From positions 1 through 28,728 of the forward strand of contig JAEEXS010000008.1 of the NCBI GenBank assembly GCA_016287855.1: a stretch of DNA of 28,728 bases, in the 5' to 3' direction. Position 1 is the stretch's first letter, and each line of letters opens with the position of its first letter. The translations under genes and the position numbers were made by a program. The notes beneath the pieces are model-generated. The model was not told the DNA's origin, ran no database searches, and worked only from the letters and a program-made list of their open reading frames with translations. This document shows, in pieces, positions 1 through 26,125 of this stretch. Source of the stretch: Clostridia bacterium. Its GTDB lineage: Bacteria; Bacillota; Clostridia; TANB77; RGIG9151.

Positions 1-756
1 TGATTTTATGCCTTCTCCTTTAGATGTTATATTTATATTTGCGTCCTTTATTGCAACGTAATCTTTTCCTCTAATACCATCATCTACCGAATTTATCTCA
101 ACTACTGCACTAATTATTTTTAACCCATCTTTACTAGCAATACCATCTGAATATTTAGAATTTACAACTAATTTTCCATTTCCGTTAATAACCAAATCTG
201 ATTTACTAAATACCGTTGCATCAGGCTCACTCTTTTCAGTATCTGTAAATACTGTATATGAACTACTATCTGTTAATGTATTTATAGAGCCATCCGCCAA
301 AGTTATTGTAAGCTTTCCGGCTTTAACACAATTTATTGGAGCAGTCGTTCTAGAAGTCAAATTAATATTATCTAAAACAATTTGAACATCATCACTCTTA
401 TCCGCTGAAACAACTATATTCCCATCAGATAATGTACCCGTTATATAATAAACTCCTGCTTTTAGTATTGTAATAGTAGATCCGCTCCTCGTAACCCCAG
501 CTCCTTCAATGCTTATATTACTATCACTCAAGCTAATTTTTGCACTATAATTTCCTATATCACTTTTTACCTCACTATTTTCATACTCAACATTTAACTC
601 TGTGCTCTCTGTAACTATCTCAACATTTCCAACTGAAGAACTATTATTATCTATAACTATATCCAAATCCTTTTTATTTAAACTATATCCAACTGCAAAT
701 AACAACACACAAATAGCTACAATTATCGGCAATGCAATTTTAATATATTTATTCAT
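1..756 (-). CDS. Carbohydrate-binding beta-helix-like protein (Cthe_2159/DUF4353 type), N-terminal part only; the C-terminus lies beyond the left window edge
   Basis: The reverse-strand frame is open from the window edge. It is absent from the ORF track because it has no in-window stop. The ATG at 756-754 overlaps the stop of the upstream gene (TAATG on the reverse strand). Translation MNKYIKIALPIIVAICVLLFAVGYS... gives a signal anchor. Downstream motifs ...ITILKAGVYYITGTLSDGNIVVSADKSDDVQIVLDNINL... and ...DGIRGKDYVAIKDANINITSKGEGIKS are ones I recognise from the family that normally sits beside VTC/DUF4956 genes. Confidence 0.7.
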   Translation of the reverse strand, partial: MNKYIKIALPIIVAICVLLFAVGYSLNKKDLDIVIDNNSSSVGNVEIVTESTELNVEYENSEVKSDIGNYSAKISLSDSNISIEGAGVTRSGSTITILKAGVYYITGTLSDGNIVVSADKSDDVQIVLDNINLTSRTTAPINCVKAGKLTITLADGSINTLTDSSSYTVFTDTEKSEPDATVFSKSDLVINGNGKLVVNSKYSDGIASKDGLKIISAVVEINSVDDGIRGKDYVAIKDANINITSKGEGIKS

Positions 757-1430
757 TATAACTCCACCTCACTTAACTCTTGTCTTTGAACCATAACAAG
801 TAAATTACCATTTCTGCACCTTATCTCATCCATAAGTTCTTTTTCCTTTTGAACTTCCTTCATCTTTACAGTATAACTCAATTCATACATACTACCCATA
901 TTAGTAGTCTTTACCTTTACTAACTCTGCATTATTAGTATATTTTTCAAATATATCATTAAACACTTCGTTATAATCTAAATTCTCAGGAATTAAAACCT
1001 TTAATCTTTTCTCTGATTCGTCTTGAGTTTTTTCAAAAATCTTACTCAAAATAATAATTAGTACCGCAACAATAAGTGTAATTACAATACTATATAAAAC
1101 ATAACCCATACCTAACGCAAGGCCTATTGTCATTGCCCAAAAAATACTTATAATTTCTTTAGAATTGCCTTGCATACTTCTAAATCTAATCAAACTAAAT
1201 GCACCTGCGACAGCCAAAGAAGTCCCTAAATTGCCATTAATCAACAATATAACAACCTGCACTAAAACGGGTAGTAAAACTAACGTAATTAAAAAATTTG
1301 AAGTAGTCTTAGTCGTAAATTTATGAGTAAAACTAATTACTCCGCCTAAAATAATACCTACCAAAATACAAATTAATAAATCCCCCGTACCAATTGATGC
1401 CATCGTTTGTGAAAAAATACTCTCTAACAT
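756..1430 (-). CDS. DUF4956 domain-containing membrane protein
   Basis: 224-aa ORF with several TM helices. The conserved stretch LLPVLVQVVILLINGNLGTSLAVAGAFSLIRFRSMQGNSKEIISIFWAMTIGLALGMGY is typical of DUF4956. It lies directly downstream of a VTC-domain gene, which is the canonical pairing. Confidence 0.8.
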   Translation of the reverse strand: MLESIFSQTMASIGTGDLLICILVGIILGGVISFTHKFTTKTTSNFLITLVLLPVLVQVVILLINGNLGTSLAVAGAFSLIRFRSMQGNSKEIISIFWAMTIGLALGMGYVLYSIVITLIVAVLIIILSKIFEKTQDESEKRLKVLIPENLDYNEVFNDIFEKYTNNAELVKVKTTNMGSMYELSYTVKMKEVQKEKELMDEIRCRNGNLLVMVQRQELSEVEL

Positions 1431-1453
1431 AAAAATTCCCTCCTATATTCTTT

Positions 1454-2164
1454 TCAAGCTATTCGCTCTATTTTTTTATCCGCTTTTAAAACTAATTTTG
1501 TATAAGCTGTTCCATATTTAGAAAAACTTCCCGGCACAATATTTAGCTCCTCCAAAGTCCTTACAAACCATATTGGCATCGCACCCAAAGTTTTAACTTC
1601 CATTATGTATTGATCTTTTTCTAATATATTCTCTCCGTAACTGCCTTTTTCCAAGCTCAAATCATACTCTCTTGCAATGATATTATTATCAAAAGTAAGT
1701 CTAAAATCTTTATTATCTTTATCATAGTAAGCCACCCTATGATAAGACAAATACATCGTTGGAACTAACCCATAATGATTAAAATAATAATTTAGTTCCC
1801 TCTTAATTTGATTTTTATCATTACTATCTTTTTCATCCCTTAAATAATCATAAAACTCATTTAACTTCATTCCAATTCTTCTCTTACTAACAACATCTTC
1901 ATATTTTCTTTTTACTTCTAAGTACACACTTCCATCCATTTTAGGTATATTATAACTTCTTAGCCTAACCTTATCTTTATAAACCGGCTTCGTAATGGAA
2001 TGTCTTATCAAATCATATTGATCTGTATCAAAATATATATTGCAAATCGTACTCTCACCAAATTCGTCACCAATCATCTGATTTTTTATTGCATCCTTTA
2101 ATGCTAAATACTGTTCTTTAGTTATAATATATTTTTTCTCAACCCTTCTAAAGAAATCTGCCAT
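1454..2164 (-). CDS. VTC domain-containing protein (polyphosphate polymerase-domain family)
   Basis: The family-like N-terminus MADFFRRVEKKYIITKEQY... starts at the ATG at 2164-2162, preceded by AAAGGGA. Motifs YFDTDQYDLIRHSI, KVRLRSYN and YLEVKRKYEDVVSKRR fit the VTC fold family. The ORF-track extension to 2287 runs through a terminator hairpin and is rejected. Confidence 0.8.
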   Translation of the reverse strand: MADFFRRVEKKYIITKEQYLALKDAIKNQMIGDEFGESTICNIYFDTDQYDLIRHSITKPVYKDKVRLRSYNIPKMDGSVYLEVKRKYEDVVSKRRIGMKLNEFYDYLRDEKDSNDKNQIKRELNYYFNHYGLVPTMYLSYHRVAYYDKDNKDFRLTFDNNIIAREYDLSLEKGSYGENILEKDQYIMEVKTLGAMPIWFVRTLEELNIVPGSFSKYGTAYTKLVLKADKKIERIA

Positions 2165-2250
2165 ACTTATCACATCCCTTTCTAAAAATAATATAAGATA
2201 TGAAGATTGAAGAAAAATTGAAAAATAAAAAAATTTTAAAAGTTTTAAAA

Positions 2251-2287
2251 ATTTAAAAATTGGACTCGGGGACATCCCCAAGTCCAA
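2251..2287 (-). terminator. Rho-independent terminator after the TCS/hydrolase unit
   Basis: Arms 2260-2272 and 2275-2287 (TTGGACTCGGGGA / TCCCCAAGTCCAA) form a 13-bp stem with one mismatch and a GGGG/CCCC core. On the reverse strand the stem is followed by TTTTTAAATTTTT. It sits 14 nt after the hydrolase stop. Confidence 0.7.
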
Positions 2288-10930: not shown

Positions 10931-11007
10931 GTGCCTGTAGCTCAGTTGGATAGAGCAACGGCCTTCTAAGCCGTTGGCCGGACGTTCGAGTCGTCTCAGG
11001 CACGCCA
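10931..11007 (+). tRNA. tRNA-Arg (anticodon UCU), CCA encoded
   Basis: Hand-folded cloverleaf. Acceptor GTGCCTG/CAGGCAC, D-arm GCTC-AGTTGGATA-GAGC, anticodon arm ACGGC-CTTCTAA-GCCGT (anticodon TCT). Variable loop TGGCC, T-arm GGACG-TTCGAGT-CGTCT, discriminator G, then CCA. Confidence 0.9.
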
Positions 11008-17347: not shown

Positions 17348-17376
17348 TTGTCAAAATACGACAAATGTGTTAAAAT
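17348..17376 (+). promoter_or_regulatory. Candidate strong sigma-A promoter of the T4SS-like operon
   Basis: TTGTCA (17348-17353), a 17-nt spacer, then an extended -10 TGtTAAAAT (17368-17376). It lies ~50 nt upstream of the first ATG. The inverted repeat TTGTC-N7-GACAA (17348-17364) overlaps the -35. Confidence 0.5.
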
Positions 17377-17427: not shown

Positions 17428-17826
17428 ATGCGCAAATTTTTTTCAATTATATTTAGCTTAATTCTACTATTTAATATATTTACTACTGACGTTTATGCCT
17501 TCTCTCTTCCGTTTAATGGTGATAATTTCATCAAAGCTGGTAGTCGTACTGAAGAAGCAAAAAATGAAACAAAAGCACTCATAGACTCTGTAGATGAAGG
17601 ACTTGGTAAAGGACTTGAAGCTATACTTGTCATTCTCTACCAAATCGGAGATATAATAGCGATTTGTATATTTATCTTTTTTGGTATAAGATATGTAGTT
17701 GCTACACCTCAGAAAAAAGCCGATTTAAAGGCTTCTATGTATCCATATTTCATTGGGTTATTGTTGTATATAGTGGGAGTGCCAATCGCTATAACAATAA
17801 TAAATATATTCATAAATGTTTTTTAA
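17428..17826 (+). CDS. TrbC/VirB2-like small membrane protein (pilin-like), paralog 1
   Basis: 132 aa, RBS GAGGAG. Signal peptide MRKFFSIIFSLILLFNIFTTDVYA, a variable ~40-aa segment, hydrophobic helix, basic loop ATPQKKADLKASM, then a second hydrophobic helix. Confidence 0.6.
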   Translation: MRKFFSIIFSLILLFNIFTTDVYAFSLPFNGDNFIKAGSRTEEAKNETKALIDSVDEGLGKGLEAILVILYQIGDIIAICIFIFFGIRYVVATPQKKADLKASMYPYFIGLLLYIVGVPIAITIINIFINVF

Positions 17827-17843
17827 TTTAAGGAGGTTATTTT

Positions 17844-18248
17844 ATGAAAAAATTTTTTAAGGTTTTAAGTTTAGTTTTAGTATTTATGTTGGCAATCGCA
17901 CCTCTAGCAGTTTCTTTTGCTGCAGACCCATCACCAATGGCTAAACCTAGTATTACTGCTGATGACTCTTTTATTAATAATACTGGTGTAGGCAATTGGT
18001 TCGGTGCTGCTGCAGGGGCTCTTAAATTTATTGGATATGGTGTTGCCGTAGTAATGATTTTATGGCTAGGTATCCAATATATGCTTGCTCAACCTGCTAA
18101 AAAAGCTGAATTAAAAGGAAAAATGTGGTCAATGCTTATTGGTATTATTCTTTTAGTTGCTGGTGTTACTATAATTGATATTCTTTGGAATGCAGCTAGC
18201 GGTCTTGATGGCCAAGTAGAAACCTATTCAGATACTCAAAATCCATAA
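17844..18248 (+). CDS. TrbC/VirB2-like small membrane protein (pilin-like), paralog 2
   Basis: 134 aa, RBS AAGGAGG. Signal peptide ...LAVSFA, then FIGYGVAVVMILWLGIQYMLAQPAKKAELKGKMWSMLIGIILLVAG. Same architecture and loop motif as paralogs 1 and 3. Confidence 0.6.
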   Translation: MKKFFKVLSLVLVFMLAIAPLAVSFAADPSPMAKPSITADDSFINNTGVGNWFGAAAGALKFIGYGVAVVMILWLGIQYMLAQPAKKAELKGKMWSMLIGIILLVAGVTIIDILWNAASGLDGQVETYSDTQNP

Positions 18249-18277
18249 TAAAATATATTGTTAAATAGGAGTTTGCT

Positions 18278-18652
18278 ATGAATAAAGACGTTTTAAAAAT
18301 AATATCCATCTTTTTTATATTAATAATTGTGCTATTTAATTTTTCTTATGCTATCGATTACCATGAGATTTCTCAAGAAATTGAAGGTTATTTTGTAAAC
18401 GGAACAAATAATGATTCCAGTGTTAATCCTGAAACTTTAAGAGATAATATCTTAGGTATTTTTAAATACATAGGTTACTTTCTAGCAGTTTGCGTAATAT
18501 TAGTTACTGGCATCCAGTTTTTAACCGCAAATGCTCAAAAGAAAGCACAACTAAAAGAAAAATTATGGTACATAGCTATTGGCGTAATTATTTTAGCAGG
18601 CGGTATTCCTATGTATGAAGCAATAAGAGATGCTTTAATGAAGCTTAGATAG
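18278..18652 (+). CDS. TrbC/VirB2-like small membrane protein (pilin-like), paralog 3
   Basis: 124 aa, RBS TAGGAG. Signal peptide ...FNFSYA, then YIGYFLAVCVILVTGIQFLTANAQKKAQLKEKLWYIAIGVIILAGG. Confidence 0.6.
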   Translation: MNKDVLKIISIFFILIIVLFNFSYAIDYHEISQEIEGYFVNGTNNDSSVNPETLRDNILGIFKYIGYFLAVCVILVTGIQFLTANAQKKAQLKEKLWYIAIGVIILAGGIPMYEAIRDALMKLR

Positions 18653-18660
18653 TTATAATA

Positions 18661-18694
18661 TGTTTTGAGCGTGTTTTTATACACGCTCAAAACA
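18661..18694 (+). promoter_or_regulatory. Perfect 14-bp stem-loop inside the operon (partial terminator / RNA-stabiliser candidate)
   Basis: TGTTTTGAGCGTGT (18661-18674), loop TTTTAT, ACACGCTCAAAACA (18681-18694). It starts 9 nt after the paralog-3 stop. It is followed by ATAATTACTT, which is not a clean U-tract. Confidence 0.55.
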
Positions 18695-18717
18695 ATAATT
18701 ACTTGGAGGTGGTTATA

Positions 18718-19071
18718 TTGAACACATATATGATTCCACGTGAAGCTACCAATGAAAACAGGTTTTTAATTTTTACACCCCAAGCAGCAATATTTTCTTT
18801 AATAGGTTTTGGTATTGGACTATGTTTTGTATTTATTTTTAACTTTATAGCTGATATGGCTCAAAATTCAATTGCTACTTATATCGGCTGGGGAATATGC
18901 GTATTAATCGTATTAATAGGGTATGCTCTTGGCACATTTAACATACCTGACACAACAGCATTTGATATATGTAGGAAAACAGGTGGAGAACCTGCTTATG
19001 TTATTATAAAACGTGCAGTCACGTTCAACAAAAGAAAAAAGATTTATATCTATGAAAGGGGAAAGTTCTAA
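18718..19071 (+). CDS. PrgI/VirB3-like small two-TM protein
   Basis: About 117 aa. GGAGGTGG at 18705-18712 favours the TTG at 18718; ATG 18730 and TTG 18703 are alternatives. Two TM helices and a basic C-terminal tail (VIIKRAVTFNKRKKIYIYERGKF). It sits just upstream of the VirB4-type ATPase, separated from it only by the 349-aa bitopic gene, as PrgI/VirB3 analogues do. Confidence 0.5.
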   Translation: MNTYMIPREATNENRFLIFTPQAAIFSLIGFGIGLCFVFIFNFIADMAQNSIATYIGWGICVLIVLIGYALGTFNIPDTTAFDICRKTGGEPAYVIIKRAVTFNKRKKIYIYERGKF

Positions 19072-20120
19072 TGGATGGTTTCTCAAAAGGGTCACTTATT
19101 TTATTGTTGGCCGTTATATTCTTTATAATTGTTGCCTTAGTCGTAATTCTCTTAATCATGAAGAAAAATGAAGAAGAGGCTAATCGACCTGGTGCAAATA
19201 GAGTAAAACAAACCCCGCTTGGTATGAGCTATGATGATATAAGAAACTTTCTTCCTTTCGATGATATAAAAGACAATATGATAGTACAAGAAAAAGGCGA
19301 AAAATATACTATGCTTGTAGAATGTCATGGTATAAACTATTATCTTATGTCAGATGTTGAAAAAATAGCCGTAGAAGAAGGGTTTATTCAATTTTTAAAC
19401 TCCCTTCGCTTCCCTATCCAAATTTACGTTCAATCTAGGACTGTAAATTTAGATGAAAGTATACGAGCTTATAGTGAAAAGTATAATAAGATTCAAGATG
19501 AATTTAATAAAATGCTTGAAAAATTCCAAGAATTAAATAGAAAAGGTGCATCTACTGATGATATCTTAGCTCTTGGATATGAACTTGAAAAGAAAGAAAA
19601 AGTATTAAATTATACAAAAGATTTAATAGATAACGTTTCATATATGACTCAAAACACTAACGTACTTGAGAAAAAATACTATATAGCAGTTTCCTACCAT
19701 ACTACCGAAGCTGGTATCGTTAATACAATGAGTGAAGCTGATTTATATAGAATGGCTTATGCAGAATTAAGTAACCGTGCTGAAAGTATTTGTGCAGGAC
19801 TAGTATCTTGTGGTGTTGAAGCCAATATATTAGATACCTACCAACTTACAGACGTGATGTATATCGCTGTTAATCGCGATGATGCAGATATCTTTAATAT
19901 TAATAAGATTGTAGATTCTCAGATTAATTCTATATCTATAACATCTAAATCAACTAAAGAAAAACGTGATGAACTTTATAGAGCTGAAAAAAGAGCTCGT
20001 GAAATCAAAGAAGAACAAGAACGTATGCTTCAAGCTGAAGCTGAAAGGCGCGAATATTTAGCACAACAAAGTTTTTCATCATCTAATAATGATGAAGTTA
20101 GTGAGTCCACACTTTTATAA
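19071..20120 (+). CDS. Bitopic membrane protein of the T4SS-like operon (function unassigned)
   Basis: 349 aa. The ATG overlaps the upstream stop (TAATG); RBS AAAGGGG. One N-terminal TM (SLILLLAVIFFIIVALVVILLIM). The segment FLPFDDIKDNMIVQEKGEKYTMLVECHGINYYLMSDVEKIAVEEGFIQFLNSLRFPIQIYVQ reminds me of the N-terminal domain of Gram-positive VirB4 proteins. The tail is charged and coiled-coil-like (KEKRDELYRAEKRAREIKEEQERMLQAEAERREY). Confidence 0.55.
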   Translation: MDGFSKGSLILLLAVIFFIIVALVVILLIMKKNEEEANRPGANRVKQTPLGMSYDDIRNFLPFDDIKDNMIVQEKGEKYTMLVECHGINYYLMSDVEKIAVEEGFIQFLNSLRFPIQIYVQSRTVNLDESIRAYSEKYNKIQDEFNKMLEKFQELNRKGASTDDILALGYELEKKEKVLNYTKDLIDNVSYMTQNTNVLEKKYYIAVSYHTTEAGIVNTMSEADLYRMAYAELSNRAESICAGLVSCGVEANILDTYQLTDVMYIAVNRDDADIFNINKIVDSQINSISITSKSTKEKRDELYRAEKRAREIKEEQERMLQAEAERREYLAQQSFSSSNNDEVSESTLL

Positions 20121-20148: not shown

Positions 20149-22182
20149 ATGAAAACTGATTATTTAAATAGAGTAGACCGTGGAGGTTATAACCACGCTC
20201 AACAGGATACCACAATCACTTCAGTTGATGACGGAGAAAATATACTTGAAAAAAATGTCACATCAATAAAAGATATAATTCTACAATCTGGAATTGATGC
20301 GACTTCATATAACCATTTACAGTTTTTTGCGAAAGCAACTAGATATTGTAGAAGCTTTTATGTAGCTTCTGTTCCACGTATGGCTACATTCGTAGAATTC
20401 TTAAGCTCTATGTATGATTTCGGAGATATAAATGTTTCCGTACATATAGAGCCTATTCCCGAAGCTATGTCTCAAAACGACTTAAACAAAATGATTTCAG
20501 ATATAGAATCAGAAATCATAGTTGCTCAGAAAAAAGGAGATACAAACCGTGCATCAGTTTTACAAGACAAGTTTTCTGAAGCAGATCAATTAAGAAGTGA
20601 AATTGCTGCCGGTTTTAATAAGTTATACGATGTATCTATATTTTGTACAATATCTTCTTATGACCTAAATGAACTTGATAGATTGTCCGAGTTACTTGCA
20701 ATGGAAGTTTCAAAAAATCTTTTAGTACTAAAAACTGCTTGGGCAATTCAAGAAGATTGCTTTAAATCCAATTTACCACTCAATCTTGATTTGGTAAAGA
20801 AAAAACATACCTTTGATAAAAGATCAGTTGCAACAGTATTTCCATTTACTACTGCTGAAATTGGTCATTCAACAGGTGTACCACTAGGTATTAACGCTCA
20901 AACCGGAGTTCCCGTATTATTCGACAACTTCCACCCTTCCCTAACCAACTATAATATGGTTGTGTTTGGTAAGTCTGGTGCCGGTAAAGGTGTTACTATA
21001 AAAGTATTAACTGCTCGTTCCTCTGTTCTTATGGGAATTGAAACCTTAGCTCTTGACGCCGAAGGTGAATATGGAGTTGTTGCTCAATCCTTAGACGGAG
21101 TTAACGTAGTTATAAGCCCAACATCAAATACAATAATAAATCTATTCGATGTTGAAGCTGAAAAAACAAGAGATGAAATCACTGGTCGTGAAAGAAATAC
21201 TGTAAATATAGAAAATAAAGTTGAAGACGTAACTCAATCTTTAGTTACAATGGCACGTGGTTCTACTAAGAGTACAGAAGTCAACGAACTTACAAAGCAG
21301 ATTATCGCTGAGGCAGTTGCTGAAGAATACCGAGCTATCGGAATTACAAGTGATCCTGAATCTTTATACGATATGAATTCTGCTTCCGTTTGGGAAAATG
21401 GTGTTCTTGTAAAACCTAAAAAACAAATGCCAACTGTTGGTTCTTGGTATGAAAGAATTTGTCAAAAAGCTGAAGAAAATACAAATCCAGATTACCAATT
21501 CCACTTTAGCTACCTTGTAAAGGTTATGAAACAATACGTAAGAAAATACAATGGACAAATGAGTTACTTTGATGGACAATCTACCTTTAATCTGTTAGAT
21601 AATGTTCCATTCATAAACTTAGACATATCTCAACTAGAGGAACGTTTTGCAAGACCTCTTGCTCAACAAATACTTCTATCTTGGATATGGGAAAAATACG
21701 TTAAGAAAAATAGTGAAGATAAGACTGTTGCTAGAAAAAAACGTGTTATAATTGATGAGGCTTGGATGATGCTTGCATATCCAGAAGCCGTAGACTTCTT
21801 AAATACAATGGCACGTCGTGCAAGAAAAAGAAACGTTTCTCTAGCTGTTGTTTCTCAAAAGTTCCAAGATTTCTATGAAACTAAAGAAGCTCAAGCAGTT
21901 TTAACATCTTCAGATACTAAACTTTTCTTAGCGCAAGATAAATCTGAAATTGAATACTTAAAAGAAGTATTTAAACTTAGCTCAGGAGAGGCTTCCTTCC
22001 TAACTACTTGTACAAGAGGAAGCGGATTATTAAAAGTCGGACCTGCTACTGCTATTTTAGAGATACATCCTACAGAATTAGAATTTGACTTTGTAGAAAC
22101 AAATATGTCTAAGATTGTAGAACGCGAGAACGCAAAAAATGAAAATGATGAAAATGATGAAAATAACGAAGAAGATATTTAA
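20149..22182 (+). CDS. VirB4-type conjugation/secretion ATPase (Gram-positive CD1110/TcpF/PrgJ-like)
   Basis: 677 aa, RBS AAAGGAG. Walker A FGKSGAGKGV (nt 20968-20991) and Walker B KRVIIDEAWMML. SLAVVSQKFQDF is also present. The N-terminal non-ATPase domain is typical of VirB4. The acidic tail ENDENDENNEEDI is encoded by a 9-nt tandem repeat. Confidence 0.8.
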   Translation: MKTDYLNRVDRGGYNHAQQDTTITSVDDGENILEKNVTSIKDIILQSGIDATSYNHLQFFAKATRYCRSFYVASVPRMATFVEFLSSMYDFGDINVSVHIEPIPEAMSQNDLNKMISDIESEIIVAQKKGDTNRASVLQDKFSEADQLRSEIAAGFNKLYDVSIFCTISSYDLNELDRLSELLAMEVSKNLLVLKTAWAIQEDCFKSNLPLNLDLVKKKHTFDKRSVATVFPFTTAEIGHSTGVPLGINAQTGVPVLFDNFHPSLTNYNMVVFGKSGAGKGVTIKVLTARSSVLMGIETLALDAEGEYGVVAQSLDGVNVVISPTSNTIINLFDVEAEKTRDEITGRERNTVNIENKVEDVTQSLVTMARGSTKSTEVNELTKQIIAEAVAEEYRAIGITSDPESLYDMNSASVWENGVLVKPKKQMPTVGSWYERICQKAEENTNPDYQFHFSYLVKVMKQYVRKYNGQMSYFDGQSTFNLLDNVPFINLDISQLEERFARPLAQQILLSWIWEKYVKKNSEDKTVARKKRVIIDEAWMMLAYPEAVDFLNTMARRARKRNVSLAVVSQKFQDFYETKEAQAVLTSSDTKLFLAQDKSEIEYLKEVFKLSSGEASFLTTCTRGSGLLKVGPATAILEIHPTELEFDFVETNMSKIVERENAKNENDENDENNEEDI

Positions 22183-22201
22183 TTAGAAAGTGGGTGTCAG
22201 T

Positions 22202-25200
22202 ATGAAAAAATTTTTTAGTCTATTTTTAGTAATGATTTTAATATTAAATTTTGTATCTTTTTCATACGCAGATACTGTTAATACTATAGATAGACTTATT
22301 GATGTTAATCCAGATGCTGTAATTTCTGTTCCTGAGCCTTCTACTCCCCCTGAAACTGATGATGAAGATCCAGATTTCGGAAGTGAAGGTGCTAAACCAA
22401 GGTGGGGAATATTCGAGCCTATAATAAGTCTTATAGAAGATATTTTAGCTTTTTTACCTTCTATGGTATTAAGGATAATATATTTAATTCCTACTTTAGA
22501 TGGAATAATTTTTAATACAAATAGACTATTTAGTATTACTCTTTTTGATACAGTTGTGCCAGCAGATACAAGTGATGCAGCCGATGCAGCCGGTACAGCT
22601 AGTACGGGTGATGCAGCCGGTACAGCAACTGAAACAATTAAAAGTGGGTCTGTTTCAGCATATCTTCAATCTTCTATCTCAGCAGTTTACAATGCTTTTA
22701 GATATTTAGTTACTGCTGTATATATAGTAGTTTTAGTTTATTTAGCAATTAGAATGATGTTATCTTCTGTAGGTCGTCAAAAAGCAAAATATAAAGAATT
22801 ATTTAAATATTGGCTTATAGGACTATTACTCCTCTTCTCCTTCCACTGGGTAATGGCTGGTGTTATTTGGCTATCTAATACAATAGTAGAGATTTTATAT
22901 AAGACAACTATTTCTATGATGTCTTCCACTACTGTTTGGGAAGAGGTTTCTAAAGTATCTCATTTTTCTGCTACTCATTATAATCAATCACCTATTACAG
23001 ATTATATATTTTATGAAATTACTCATTTCTTAGGAACAGTTGCTGAAATAGGATTGGTAGCTTCCGTTTTTGGATGGGCTTTGGTATTTGCTGTACCAAT
23101 TCTTGCTCTTGTATTTGCAATTATGCTTATAAGATCCGCTTTTAGTATTATTATTACTTACTTTAAACGTTTGTTTACCATATTAGTTTTAGTATTACTA
23201 TTCCCTATCGTAGTACTTTCTTATGTGTTTGATAAAATAGGAGATAGGAAAGCTCAAACCCTTTCGATATGGATTAAAGAGTTTGTAACTAACGTAATGA
23301 TACAACCTATTCACGCCCTAATACTTACATTCATTGGTATTATGTTTGCGAAAGCTTCTTCTTCCCTATTACTTAATAATGCATTTTTTGGCCCTATTTT
23401 CTGTTTACTAGCTCTAAGATTAATACCTATGGGCGAAGAATTATTAAAGAAATTATTCCAGATATCTTCTCAAATGGGACCTGGTTCTCATGGTATCGCC
23501 GGTTCTGTTGCTCAAGCTGGCTTAGCTCTTCGTGGTATGAGAGAAATGGGAGGAGCTTTAAAGAGTAATTTTTCGAATATTAAAGATTTAAGGAATTTAC
23601 GAAAACAGCATGGAATAGAATCTAGCTTCAAGACTGCTACAAAAGGAGCTGCTTTATTCAGTAAAGGTGAAGATGGTAAACTACATCTTAATTCAAAAGA
23701 CCAACGAGGTCTAAATGGAGCTCGTGCTGCTCTTAGTTCTCGAAATAACGAAGAATATAAAAGAGCTTATGAGGATTATAAAAAAGCTGTTAAGAAAAAG
23801 ACTAATTCTAAAAATATGGTAGGAGCTCTTGCTAAAACATATGCTCCAGCTGCCGGTGTTGCTTATGGTATAGGTGGTGCTATAACAAGTGCTGGGTCAG
23901 GTCAATTCTTATCCAAGGCCGCTACAAATGCTGCTATTGCAGGATCAGCAGCAGGAGCAATTGCTAAGGCTCCTGGCGCTGTAGATAAGTTTATTCATGG
24001 TGATGATGAATCAGCTAAACAATATGAAAAATTACTTAAGAAGATTAAGAATACAGATTTAGACTCTATGGATTCAACTGAAAAGAAACGTATATCGACT
24101 CTAACTGGCATCCCTGAATCTGCTTTAACTGAGGCTAATAGAGCACGACTAGAACTAGATATCAATGCTATGGCTACTGCTGCTAGATTTGGTGCACCTT
24201 CAGATAAAGTTAAAGACTTTACGTCTTATTCTCGTCAGAAGAAATTAATTGAAGACGGGCTTATGCCTGACGGAAGCGGTGCTACATTTGATAAATCTCT
24301 ATTTACAAATGTTCAACGTACCAAAGATGGATATACTGGTGAATATAATGGTCAAAGATATTATATTGGTGGCAAAGGCAGTGAAGATGACCTTGTTGAC
24401 TTTAACAATCCTACTAAATGGGCTGATGCTAAGAAAGCTTATGATGCTGCTTCAACCAAGGTAAATACTGCTGAAATCGAGTTAAGTGATCTTAATACTA
24501 CACATTCTGAATTAGTAAAAGCACGCGATAAAGCTAAATCTCGTGGTAATACTGAAGAAGCAACTAGATTGCAACACGAAATTAATATTAATAGTGATAA
24601 AATCTCATCTAAAAAGACTGAAATTCGTGAAGCAAAACTAATAAGAGATGATACTGAAAAAACATTGAATTCACTAATAGATGCAGATATTGATTACCAT
24701 ACTAAATTTATGGGAGAGGCTGCTCCTGAGCATGCTGAATCTGCAGTTAAGTTAATAAGAAAAGATCCTAGCAAAGGTTCTTACACAATATCTGGCGTAG
24801 ATTCTGATGGTAATATAGATTATAGTGTAGATCCTCGTACGTTTACTATTACATATCAAGGTCAAACATTTACAACAGAAACTCCTCGCAATATGTTGAA
24901 TACTTCTCAACAGCTAGTAGCCGACTATTATGCTGCTAATGAAGCACTCGCTACTGCTGATACCACCCTAACTGCAGCACAAAATAACTTACAACTAGCT
25001 GTTGCCCAAAATCTCAGCGATCCTGGTAGTGTTTCTGCCGCTGATGTTGCCGTAGCTCAAACAGCTTACGATCAAGCTCAAGCAGCTTATGATCAAGCAC
25101 GGTTAGATCGTAGAAATGCAGGCGAAAGAATAATAAAGAGAAATCCAAATAACGGAAATATTAGTATAGATGGACGCAGTATGATAGTTACATATAAGGA

Positions 25201-26125
25201 TGAATCATATACTATGCAAACTCCTGATTACATGCTAGATTCTACTCAAAGAGTAGTAGCCGAGTATGACGATGCTACAACCGCTTTACGTGAAGCCGAA
25301 ACTGATTATAATGTAGCATCTGCAGCTAATGATACAGTTGCTATGAATAATGCTAATTTAAGACGTATTGAGGCTAGTGAACAACAAAGACTTGCTGCTT
25401 ATAAAATGGTTGTACAAAATCCTTCTAAAGGAAGTTACATTCAATCTGGAAACAATTATACTGTAACTGTAAATGCAAATGCTGAAAAAGGACAACAAGA
25501 AGAAACATTTAGTATTCCAGTAGTAAATCCTGCTTCAGTAGAGCAAGCTCAACATGTTATATATCAATCTGTAATGACTGAAGCTAAACAAGAAAAATAT
25601 GTTGAGTTAAGAGACAATTATATTAGTGCTATAGAGAGTGAAGATGCTAAAGCAATAAATACTGCAGATAGAGCGTTAAATAAATTCATTAATGAAACTT
25701 CTAAAGATGTGTCTGATACATTTAACGCATATACTGCAAACCCTTCTTCTGCTCCAGCTAATACTACTGATTTCGGACCATCTCTTGATTTACGAGGTCT
25801 CTTTACTAGTATAGCTGCTAATCCTAATACTCCTACGCCTGCCTTTACTGCCTCTATGATAGATTCTACGTTAGATGAAGACTTATTTGCTTCTGGTGCT
25901 TGTACTGAATTATCAGATTTCTTAAAAGACACGAGCCAAAAACTTATAATTTTGCAAAAAAATGTTGCTAATATTGTAATTAGTATTAAAGAATTTGGTG
26001 TTCTTAAACCTGTAAAAGAAATTTACGATGTTAGTACCTTAACTATGGAAGCAATATTTGGCGATTCAGATGATCCTGTAACAATATTCTTTAAAGATGG
26101 TAGATGGTATATAAAAGAAAAATAA
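22202..26125 (+). CDS. Giant VirB6/TrbL-like polytopic membrane protein with a long repeat-bearing C-terminal domain
   Basis: 1307 aa from the ATG at 22202; the ORF-track GTG at 22190 is less likely. Signal-peptide-like MKKFFSLFLVMILILNFVSFSYA. At least 6 TM helices lie between ~22650 and 23440, for example FKRLFTILVLVLLFPIVVLSYVF. After that come a Gly/Ala-rich segment (~23830-23990), a coiled-coil-like stretch (~24440-24700) and three divergent repeats. It follows VirB4 directly, as VirB6 analogues (TcpH/ConG/Orf15) do. Confidence 0.6.
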   Translation: MKKFFSLFLVMILILNFVSFSYADTVNTIDRLIDVNPDAVISVPEPSTPPETDDEDPDFGSEGAKPRWGIFEPIISLIEDILAFLPSMVLRIIYLIPTLDGIIFNTNRLFSITLFDTVVPADTSDAADAAGTASTGDAAGTATETIKSGSVSAYLQSSISAVYNAFRYLVTAVYIVVLVYLAIRMMLSSVGRQKAKYKELFKYWLIGLLLLFSFHWVMAGVIWLSNTIVEILYKTTISMMSSTTVWEEVSKVSHFSATHYNQSPITDYIFYEITHFLGTVAEIGLVASVFGWALVFAVPILALVFAIMLIRSAFSIIITYFKRLFTILVLVLLFPIVVLSYVFDKIGDRKAQTLSIWIKEFVTNVMIQPIHALILTFIGIMFAKASSSLLLNNAFFGPIFCLLALRLIPMGEELLKKLFQISSQMGPGSHGIAGSVAQAGLALRGMREMGGALKSNFSNIKDLRNLRKQHGIESSFKTATKGAALFSKGEDGKLHLNSKDQRGLNGARAALSSRNNEEYKRAYEDYKKAVKKKTNSKNMVGALAKTYAPAAGVAYGIGGAITSAGSGQFLSKAATNAAIAGSAAGAIAKAPGAVDKFIHGDDESAKQYEKLLKKIKNTDLDSMDSTEKKRISTLTGIPESALTEANRARLELDINAMATAARFGAPSDKVKDFTSYSRQKKLIEDGLMPDGSGATFDKSLFTNVQRTKDGYTGEYNGQRYYIGGKGSEDDLVDFNNPTKWADAKKAYDAASTKVNTAEIELSDLNTTHSELVKARDKAKSRGNTEEATRLQHEININSDKISSKKTEIREAKLIRDDTEKTLNSLIDADIDYHTKFMGEAAPEHAESAVKLIRKDPSKGSYTISGVDSDGNIDYSVDPRTFTITYQGQTFTTETPRNMLNTSQQLVADYYAANEALATADTTLTAAQNNLQLAVAQNLSDPGSVSAADVAVAQTAYDQAQAAYDQARLDRRNAGERIIKRNPNNGNISIDGRSMIVTYKDESYTMQTPDYMLDSTQRVVAEYDDATTALREAETDYNVASAANDTVAMNNANLRRIEASEQQRLAAYKMVVQNPSKGSYIQSGNNYTVTVNANAEKGQQEETFSIPVVNPASVEQAQHVIYQSVMTEAKQEKYVELRDNYISAIESEDAKAINTADRALNKFINETSKDVSDTFNAYTANPSSAPANTTDFGPSLDLRGLFTSIAANPNTPTPAFTASMIDSTLDEDLFASGACTELSDFLKDTSQKLIILQKNVANIVISIKEFGVLKPVKEIYDVSTLTMEAIFGDSDDPVTIFFKDGRWYIKEK
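24755..25620 (+). repeat. Three divergent protein-level repeats (~70-80 aa) in the C-terminal domain of the VirB6-like protein
   Basis: R1, 24755-24985: IRKDPSKGSYTISG...FTITYQGQTFTTETPRNMLNTSQQLVADYYAANEALATADT. R2, 25133-25335: IKRNPNNGNISIDG...MIVTYKDESYTMQTPDYMLDSTQRVVAEYDDATTALREAET. R3, 25409-25620: VQNPSKGSYIQSG...YTVTVNANAEKG...; R3 is more diverged. Confidence 0.7.

Follow-up and report, generated by a model that had tools for sequence, protein, structure and literature searches.

Background

Tandem arrays of VirB2-like pilin genes have been described in the type IV secretion systems (T4SSs) of Patescibacteria, where 441 arrays of 2-11 genes with an average identity of 25% were reported and arrays occur in 383 of about 1,950 pilin-carrying assemblies (PMC12102498). 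They adjoin genes for VirB4, TrsD, PrgI and VirB6, mostly without a relaxase (PMC12102498), and this same component set with its pilin arrays is essential in Patescibacteria (PMC12102498, PMC12857230). The Gram-positive T4SS classes were stated to be without virB2, and the origin of the Patescibacteria pilins was left unresolved 'given their absence in MPF_FATA' (PMC12102498). A December 2025 review of T4SSs states that VirB2 and VirB5 are absent from Gram-positive T4SSs except those of Patescibacteria, and it describes this group as the only monoderms with a potential for making conjugative pili (PMC12857230). We have analyzed a 28,728-nt stretch of DNA from a Clostridia bacterium (contig JAEEXS010000008.1), referred to as the window, that carries three tandem, diverged pilin-like open reading frames (ORFs) at positions 17428-18652. 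The explanation that we consider probable is that these genes encode co-expressed subunits of the VirB2 family that would build a wall-spanning, pilus-like structure of a conserved, chromosomal, non-conjugative T4SS of monoderm type. Directly observed were the membership of the proteins in pilin profiles, their linkage to secretion machinery, the presence of at least three paralogs in each complete locus, operon-like spacing, a hairpin after the array, and strain variation located outside the helical hairpin of the proteins.

The Patescibacteria system, as found in Ca. Southlakia epibionticum ML1 and Ca. Nanosynbacter lyticus TM7x, closely resembles that of the window in its parts. In both, tandem diverged pilins are found by the Pfam profiles PF18895 and PF04956, the array stands beside VirB4 with VirB3/PrgI-like, TrsD-like and VirB6-like genes, peptidase genes follow downstream, and the locus is chromosomal and usually relaxase-less. 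The two differ in that the host of the window belongs to a Clostridia lineage (Bacillota), and in that three or more copies are present in every surveyed Clostridia locus, whereas arrays are found in only part of the Patescibacteria assemblies. The nearest named relatives of the window VirB4 are from Peptostreptococcaceae, Heliorestis and Clostridium plasmids; these nearest named search neighbours, rather than a tree, suggest that it lies outside the monophyletic Patescibacteria clade. In an exhaustive VirB4 search, which returned the clade as one representative, the next named neighbours were Firmicutes and most neighbours were nameless, a result that neither supports nor excludes a sister relationship. 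We found no paper on this Clostridia system in the literature searched.

Results and discussion

The pilin array

The three ORFs, all on the forward (+) strand, share one order of elements: a Sec-type signal peptide, a variable segment, and two hydrophobic helices with a short basic loop between them. Pilin 1 (ORF1, 17428-17826) is 132 aa long, with a signal peptide of aa 1-24 that ends in VYA before F and a variable segment, predicted to be exposed, at aa 25-62 (nt 17500-17613). Pilin 2 (ORF2, 17844-18248; 134 aa) has its signal peptide at aa 1-26 (SFA before A), a variable segment at aa 27-52 (nt 17922-17999) and also a variable C-terminal tail at aa 116-134 (nt 18189-18245). Pilin 3 (ORF3, 18278-18652; 124 aa) begins with a signal peptide of aa 1-25 (SYA before I), followed by a variable segment at aa 26-55 (nt 18353-18442). 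Each signal peptide consists of a basic n-region (MRKFF, MKKFF and MNKDVLK, respectively), a hydrophobic core and an AXA-type end. The basic loops between the helices read PQKKADLKA, PAKKAELKG and AQKKAQLKE, with KKADLK, KKAELK and KKAQLK at their centers. Pairwise identity among the three proteins in the alignment is 26-30%, mostly within the helix-loop-helix; G74, A78, G86, A92, K96, K97, A98, L100, K101, G110 and G117 are invariant, and the 25-40 residues that follow the signal peptide do not align between paralogs. An earlier note on this DNA, made from the sequence alone, had described the common architecture, the signal peptides ending in (F/Y)A and the unrelated mature N-terminal segments, and the alignment agrees with all three descriptions. 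The loop motif that it proposed, A-x3-KKA-x-LK, is present in the three ORFs of the window but is not family-wide: the exact form occurs in 6-8 of 185 surveyed pilins and thus marks a sub-clade, the wider family having the consensus S-x-E-E-K-A-E-Y-K-K with K-A-x-x-K as the constant part.

Family membership was assessed against curated thresholds of 26.6 bits for PF18895 (T4SS_pilin), 27.9 bits for PF04956 (TrbC/VirB2) and 40 bits for the NCBIfam family NF045849. ORF2 (28.9 bits, E 1.2e-6) and ORF3 (32.5 bits, E 9.2e-8) both score above the T4SS_pilin threshold. An iterated family hidden Markov model (HMM) built from related loci matches all three ORFs at about E 1e-22 to 1e-29. On these scores the resemblance is no accident. 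Across the family, PF18895 is matched by 73 of 94 members and PF04956 by 61 of 94 (E≤1e-3), which bears out the likeness to VirB2/TrbC proposed in the earlier note. That note had taken missing pilin similarity, or matches to holins or bacteriocin-immunity proteins, as grounds for giving the proposal up; the Pfam scans returned the pilin profiles and, among the matches of the three ORFs and the 94 relatives, no holin or bacteriocin-immunity family. Maff2, the other family that it had suggested, was not borne out in the Pfam scan, with no match for the three ORFs at E≤1 and no place among the families matched by the 94 relatives. On this sequence evidence as a whole, the three ORFs are quite probably paralogous pilin subunits of the VirB2/TrbC superfamily.

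Transcription signals

Each pilin ORF is preceded by a Shine-Dalgarno sequence (GAGGAG, AAGGAGG and TAGGAG), and the gaps within the triplet, of 17 nt and 29 nt, hold only ribosome-binding sites. A promoter-like site, TTGTCA-17-TAAAAT with a TG extension, lies at 17348..17376 (+), about 50 nt 5' of pilin 1. It is the best in the region, with 10 of 12 matches, but it is a consensus match only, and the count of such sites across the region is at chance level; for internal sites the count is 12, against 12.4 expected. Between the pilin array and the machinery genes there is a perfect 14-bp hairpin at 18661..18694 (+), and the 71-nt stretch that contains it folds at -25.5 kcal/mol (z -5.8). In a scan of stem lengths, stems of at least 9 bp were found at the post-array gap in 78% of 73 related loci, mostly in the A-run/stem/U-run form of a terminator, and in only 28% of the pilin-pilin gaps. 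As judged from its sequence, the hairpin of the window is probably a transcript end or an attenuator, and the frequency of terminator-type stems after the array fits a pilin transcript in excess over that of the machinery. Rfam and tRNA scans found nothing within the locus itself.

Copy number and gene order in related loci

Homologues of VirB4 number more than 6,900. The best 120, all with at least 67% identity to the window protein, carry only the name 'DUF87 domain-containing protein' and come from metagenome-assembled genomes of Clostridia. Names among related records include Clostridium sp. CAG:452 and CAG:780, and CAG genera of this kind belong to the GTDB order TANB77. A VirB4 search of a collection with one genome per species gave at least 496 matching stretches, from which 80 loci were fetched. 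The module of pilins, VirB3-like protein, TrsD-like protein, VirB4 and VirB6-like protein keeps its core order in 76-81 of 81 loci. Pilin genes were counted wherever the flanks were complete, in 55 loci: 34 have three, 15 have four and 4 have five to seven, and the remaining 2 are without upstream pilins and have an array of four or five genes downstream instead. Every one of these 55 loci thus has at least three paralogs; the triplet is conserved throughout the clade, across hundreds of uncultured species of gut Clostridia, and is not a peculiarity of this genome.

A best BLAST match in another locus was found for 169 of the 185 pilins, and in 126 of these it occupied the same array position, so the paralogs predate many speciations. 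Positional orthology holds among the nearer relatives only. For example, the positional orthologues in loci L081 and L084 are, respectively, 91% and 54% identical for pilin 1, 81% and 56% for pilin 2, and 90% and 49% for pilin 3. A minority of loci have the array of 4-5 genes on the 3' side of the machinery, the whole block having moved (L004 19226-20773, L013 14605-16404, L088 19265-20794). In several loci the length of one paralog is 200-430 aa, owing to a large extra domain before the conserved hairpin (L087 3979-5259, L023 6202-7311, L038 4542-6796, L045 597-1574, L001 7723-8382). These may be adhesin-like or tip subunits shown on a pilin scaffold.

No relaxase, coupling protein or integrase was found in the window, nor within about 10 kb on either side of the locus in L081, L084, L087, L088 and L089, so that the mobile-element context of conjugative monoderm T4SSs (MPF_FATA/MPF_FA) is not encountered here. 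The flanks in the window and its annotated relatives are housekeeping genes: DUF5693, CsaB, TagA, MgsA, YmdB, FtsH, TilS and MutS2. A conserved chromosomal position of the locus was considered and rejected, as flanks are common to the closest relatives only and the position differs between distant loci.

Strain variation

The window was compared with the metagenomic locus L081, in which VirB4 is 99% identical. DNA identity is 94-100% over the locus and falls to 71-77% exactly at the variable segments of the pilins and the tail of pilin 2. Over the last 870 aa of the VirB6-like protein, with 25-50% DNA identity and many gaps, the two strains are essentially unalignable, and the start of the hydrolase protein is about 58-66% identical. 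Rates of nonsynonymous (dN) and synonymous (dS) substitution were estimated by the Nei-Gojobori method. VirB4 (dN 0.004, dS 0.125) has a dN/dS of 0.03, indicating strong purifying selection, and the signal peptides and hairpin cores of the pilins (dN 0.025, dS 0.20) one of 0.12. The variable segments and tails of the pilins have dN 0.25 and dS 0.48, and this raised dS suggests imported or long-kept divergent alleles. At 82% VirB4 identity, pilin orthologues are only 25-45% identical. The exposed regions had been called hypervariable from a comparison of the paralogs alone, and the variation between strains is indeed concentrated in the segments predicted to be exposed.

Predicted structure and topology

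In the AlphaFold2 model of the pilin 2 precursor, a signal-peptide helix (2-26) is followed by helices at 49-81 and 84-130; in that of the mature protein the two helices span 23-55 and 58-103. In both models a helical hairpin follows a disordered N-terminal segment, with predicted local distance difference test (pLDDT) scores of 73-76, and the modeled hairpin is compatible with VirB2. By the positive-inside rule and the established topology of VirB2, the basic loop would face the cytoplasm and, in a pilus, the lumen. The same topology would leave both termini exposed, and in the pilins of the window those are the parts that vary. Structure prediction had been proposed earlier as a check; run on the monomer it gave the expected hairpin, and the search of the PDB with it proved non-specific.

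Machinery genes

All of the machinery genes are on the + strand, and the triplet sits 1.5-2.7 kb 5' of VirB4. Directly 3' of the hairpin, 18703..19071 encodes a two-helix membrane protein of 117-122 aa, of the VirB3/PrgI-like kind, that is present in 78 of 81 loci. Its true start is probably the TTG at 18718 (117 aa), 5 nt 3' of a GGAGGTGG ribosome-binding site, the mechanical ORF start at 18703 being probably too early. Its positional counterpart in related plasmid modules carries a PrgI-family annotation (Pfam PrgI, E 1.4e-10); the window protein has no significant Pfam match, and its identity therefore rests on position and size. The next gene (19071..20120, 349 aa), whose start overlaps the preceding stop, encodes a TrsD-like protein with an N-terminal transmembrane helix and a domain with remote homology to the VirB4 N-terminus. 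It matches the N-terminal regions of two VirB4 families of NCBIfam (E 1.6e-4 and 4.5e-4), its orthologues carry precomputed Pfam PF26593 (TraC-like), and the gene is found in 80 of 81 loci; TrsD is the name used in the literature for such a protein resembling the VirB4 N-terminus. VirB4 itself (20149..22182, 677 aa) is an ATPase with Pfam TraG P-loop, DUF87 and AAA_10 matches, and it scores 209 bits against the CD1110-family VirB4 of NCBIfam, in addition to matching TraC/VirB4 families.

An extended, polytopic VirB6-like membrane protein of 1311 aa follows at 22190..26125. It has a pilin-like signal peptide, a pilin-like hairpin and further transmembrane helices, and its true start is probably the ATG at 22202, which opens with MKKFF as in a pilin signal peptide, the mechanical start at 22190 being probably too early. 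The hairpin (aa 158-240, nt 22661-22909) has the loop GRQKAKYKE, scores 24.7 bits against T4SS_pilin at aa 163-226 and aligns to the pilin profile in hhalign with E 2e-4 over 75 columns. The pilin HMM matches this large downstream protein in nearly all loci. A weak match to NCBIfam MMCAP2_0566 was also found, and one orthologue matches Pfam TrbL_3, of the VirB6 family. The C-terminal region, of about 870 aa (window 23551-26125), is hydrophilic and hypervariable; it contains three loose repeat units (..NPSKGSY...T.QTP..ML.S.Q..) and a 21-nt tandem repeat at 25054-25098.

The last gene (26161..28728) encodes the first 856 aa of a large protein, secreted or in the membrane, whose open frame leaves the end of the window, and is 77% identical in DNA to its L081 counterpart. 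Its orthologues (1060-1069 aa) end in Peptidase_M23 (in L081, E 9e-28 at aa 955-1052), and the same gene is found in L082, L083, L088 and L089; the product is a probable cell-wall hydrolase, as judged from this domain. Its N-terminus has long K/D/N/P-rich low-complexity sequence, with tandem repeats of 36 nt (26759-26870) and repeats of 18 nt (26255-26289). Beyond the window end, a conserved protein of about 300 aa is encoded 3' of the hydrolase gene (L081 19811-20710), with orthologues in 36 loci. It has faint matches to DUF4864, DUF4829 and DUF3887 and could be the missing VirB8-like component.

Comparison with other systems

The same module is found on plasmids of cultured Firmicutes, with VirB4 30-41% identical to that of the window and in the same order of pilin, PrgI/VirB3-like protein, TrsD-like protein, DUF87-type VirB4, large VirB6-like protein and peptidoglycan hydrolase. 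These modules differ in being plasmid-borne, in having 1-2 pilin genes and in the hydrolase, which is of the C39, lytic transglycosylase or M23 type. One pilin-like gene is present in each of C. botulinum pINGR16-02E1 and C. beijerinckii p1. In C. perfringens pJFP838A and a Paenibacillus thiaminolyticus plasmid one gene above the T4SS_pilin threshold lies directly 5' of the annotated PrgI gene, and Thermoanaerobacterium pMU3262 has two pilin genes; in all, pilins of three plasmids pass this threshold, with 30-38 bits. T4SS_pilin genes are therefore not rare in Firmicute T4SS modules, and among those sampled it is the arrays of three or more that are specific to the chromosomal gut clade. The earlier note had stated that Gram-positive T4SSs normally carry at most one such gene and had called for a survey of copy number; the statement fits the related Firmicute plasmid modules, with their one or two, and the survey gave at least three in each complete gut Clostridia locus. 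In the literature searched, no discussion of the Firmicute plasmid modules as pilin-bearing was found.

Two further features of the plasmids were observed. On T. saccharolyticum pMU3262 (L090 5728-6366) a 212-aa protein has two T4SS_pilin stretches (38.1 bits) in a tandem-domain-like arrangement, beside the single-domain pilin gene. On the C. perfringens and Paenibacillus plasmids (L091/L092, 74-5900) genes for a prepilin peptidase, a TlpA-type disulfide reductase, a sigma-70 family factor and ClpX precede the modules, and a gene set common to two such distant genera suggests a larger co-inherited unit.

Diderm VirB2, TrbC and TraA, the subunits of the T-pilus, RP4 pilus and F pilus, share with the proteins of the window a signal peptide, two hydrophobic helices with a short basic loop, and a place beside VirB3/VirB4. 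Unlike the diderm clusters, that of the window lacks VirB5, VirB7, VirB9, VirB10 and VirB11, no outer membrane is expected, and three paralogs are co-encoded where the diderm systems have one major pilin. The archaeal Ced/Ted import systems (PMC9905601) likewise combine a VirB2-like pilin (CedA1/TedC), a VirB4-family ATPase and a VirB6-like protein, with no relaxase, on the chromosome of a cell with a single membrane. Their sequences are very distant, however (the window VirB4 matches CedB weakly, at 29.5 bits), their gene set is another and has no pilin array, and DNA import, shown there, is only a possibility for the Clostridia system.

Proteins of the integrative and conjugative elements (ICEs) of Mycoplasma, also monoderm, are the best NCBIfam matches of pilin 3, the VirB6-like protein, the TrsD-like protein and VirB4 (NF045849 Mbov_0395 family, MMCAP2_0566 and Mbov_0397 VirB4). 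Scores are far below the cut-offs, at 25.0 bits (E 1.1e-5) for ORF3, 16.1 bits for ORF1, 18 bits for the VirB6-like protein and 180 bits for VirB4, so the window proteins are related to these families but not members, and the Mycoplasma genes differ in belonging to mobile elements equipped with transfer functions. A conserved 'pilin' gene array has also been reported from uncultured gut Clostridia of reduced genome, the TANB77 (PMC11680825), in a paper that makes no mention of T4SS or VirB proteins. The possibility that it is the same system was rejected: with its CpaF/TadA ATPase, TadB/C platform and type IV pilin-like subunits it is a Tad pilus and another machine.

A proposed mechanism and its alternatives

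In the mechanism that we propose, the three pilin genes would be co-transcribed from one promoter, and the hairpin would give the pilins a higher dose than the machinery genes. Each precursor would be exported by Sec and cut by signal peptidase I, and the mature protein would lie in the membrane as a helical hairpin with its basic loop in the cytoplasm and both termini outside. VirB4, with its VirB3-like and TrsD-like partners, would extract the subunits, and these would then stack on the VirB6-like platform; the hairpin embedded in that platform may serve as a nucleating subunit. The product would be a short heteromeric tube or pilus across peptidoglycan opened by the M23 hydrolase, with the variable N-terminal segments and tails forming its outer surface. 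The lack of an accompanying relaxase, coupling protein or integrase probably points, by analogy with the Patescibacteria T4SS and archaeal Ced/Ted, to contact-dependent exchange with other cells. By the same analogy, the cell could in this way take up or deliver DNA, proteins or nutrients, as opposed to transferring a mobile element.

Several results weigh against this explanation. ORF1 scores 15.6 bits against T4SS_pilin, below the threshold, and is counted as a member of the family because of its E-value of 8.5e-22 with the family HMM, despite that score; against PF04956, all three ORFs remain under the threshold, ORF2 with 19.1 and ORF3 with 23.3 bits. Foldseek searches of the PDB with both pilin 2 models found no pilin, all matches having E>4; the top ones (ATP-synthase c subunits, PsbZ and WXG100 proteins) are generic helical hairpins, and the fold test is uninformative for so small a protein. 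The pilin profile found no pilin among PDB sequences either, only a designed coiled coil, ninjurin and an ATP-synthase c subunit. There is no U-tract at the hairpin of the window, which makes termination there uncertain. Over the whole clade, array positions cannot be matched as orthologues, since same-position scores (47-49 bits) are similar to cross-position scores (43-51 bits). The pairwise dN/dS of the variable segments, 0.52, is no demonstration of positive selection, and relaxed constraint together with recombination would fit it. The lack of a relaxase and a coupling protein is judged from the 28.7-kb window and near flanks, and either could still be encoded elsewhere in the genome. Lastly, filament formation, subunit stoichiometry and cargo are inferred.

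This last point bears most on an explanation in which the three proteins, though VirB2-like, would form no extracellular filament and would serve the T4SS from within the membrane, as parts of its channel or its assembly apparatus. Some diderm systems that produce no pilus need their pilins for substrate transfer. Most Gram-negative T4SSs depend on VirB2 pilins, with or without pilus formation (PMC12857230), the fold search was non-specific, and a pilin-like hairpin is built into the VirB6-like membrane protein. We nevertheless regard such a role as rather unlikely: strain variation is concentrated in the segments predicted to lie outside the membrane, which suggests exposure to outside selection, the conserved terminator-type hairpin suggests a dose of subunits above that of the machinery, and the extra domains of the long paralogs fit a display scaffold. 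The unrelated N-terminal segments of the paralogs, hypervariable between strains, could also mean that the array is a repertoire of alternative subunits, used one at a time for antigenic or receptor variation, and such a reading is cited for the tandem VirB2 copies of the intracellular pathogens Bartonella and Anaplasma (PMC12102498). The heteromeric and the alternative-subunit arrangement had both been offered in the earlier note; of the two, the tight operon spacing favours the co-expression that the former implies. The short gaps, the chance-level count of internal promoter-like sites, and the retention of at least three paralogs in all complete loci, with same-position best matches among near relatives, argue for non-redundant, co-expressed roles and make one-at-a-time use improbable. 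Signals for phase or antigenic switching were considered and rejected, as no invertible or long repeats fit for switching or gene conversion were found in the locus.

Two other explanations would remove the proteins from a working secretion system altogether. The locus might be a decaying integrated conjugative element with the small ORFs as non-functional leftovers, as the lack of relaxase, coupling protein and integrase and the varying chromosomal position between distant loci might suggest; with all genes intact, VirB4 67-99% identical across the matching stretches and under strong purifying selection, the core order kept in nearly every locus, and the hairpin cores of the pilins themselves under purifying selection, this is highly improbable. 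Slightly less probable still is that these small proteins with two hydrophobic helices are holins or bacteriocin-immunity proteins that work with the nearby M23 peptidase and have nothing to do with type IV secretion. A peptidoglycan hydrolase is indeed encoded in the cluster, but the Pfam results described above speak against this, cleavable signal peptides are atypical of holins, and linkage to the VirB4, VirB3-like and VirB6-like genes is invariant. Co-expressed subunits of a wall-spanning, pilus-like structure thus remain the explanation that we prefer.

Other features of the window

The upstream part of the window carries housekeeping genes on the minus strand: DUF5693, a CsaB-type pyruvyl transferase, TagA, YitT, MgsA and tRNA-Arg, and further HtrA, ribulose-phosphate epimerase, ClpC, a two-component system and a VTC-domain gene. 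The tRNA-Arg (anticodon TCT, 10931-11007) lies between the HtrA-like and MgsA genes and is the sole RNA family in the window. Adjacent VTC-domain and DUF4956 proteins are encoded at 756-2287 (minus strand), beside an alpha/beta hydrolase and the two-component system, and are unrelated to the pilin array. We infer a monoderm host, because related records bear Clostridia names, CsaB and TagA are encoded in the neighbourhood, and VirB7, VirB9 and VirB10 are lacking.

Conclusion

Near-identical arrays are already known from Patescibacteria (PMC12102498), and the interest of the Clostridia locus lies in its contradiction of the current generalisation. Pilins that pass the profile threshold, beside PrgI, TrsD-like and VirB4 genes on Firmicute plasmids, bear on the claims that Gram-positive T4SSs outside Patescibacteria lack VirB2. 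Throughout a large gut Clostridia clade the system is kept on the chromosome, its array of three or more paralogs is fixed, and neither a relaxase nor a coupling-protein gene lies close by. The hypervariability of the exposed pilin parts, the VirB6-like protein and the hydrolase protein indicates surface structures under strong outside pressure in abundant uncultured gut bacteria. A more far-reaching proposal, which we regard as speculative and rather doubtful, is that the Clostridia system is the monoderm sister or donor lineage of the Patescibacteria T4SS and builds the first VirB2-type pilus in a thick-walled Gram-positive, a heteromeric, hypervariable filament for partner-specific exchange on which these Clostridia would depend; VirB2 pilins would then be ancestral to monoderm T4SSs and not borrowed from diderms. 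The question of VirB2 pili in Gram-positive T4SSs is now testable in culturable hosts such as C. perfringens, Thermoanaerobacterium and C. beijerinckii. Overall, the data suggest that monoderm T4SSs can carry VirB2-type subunits of their own.

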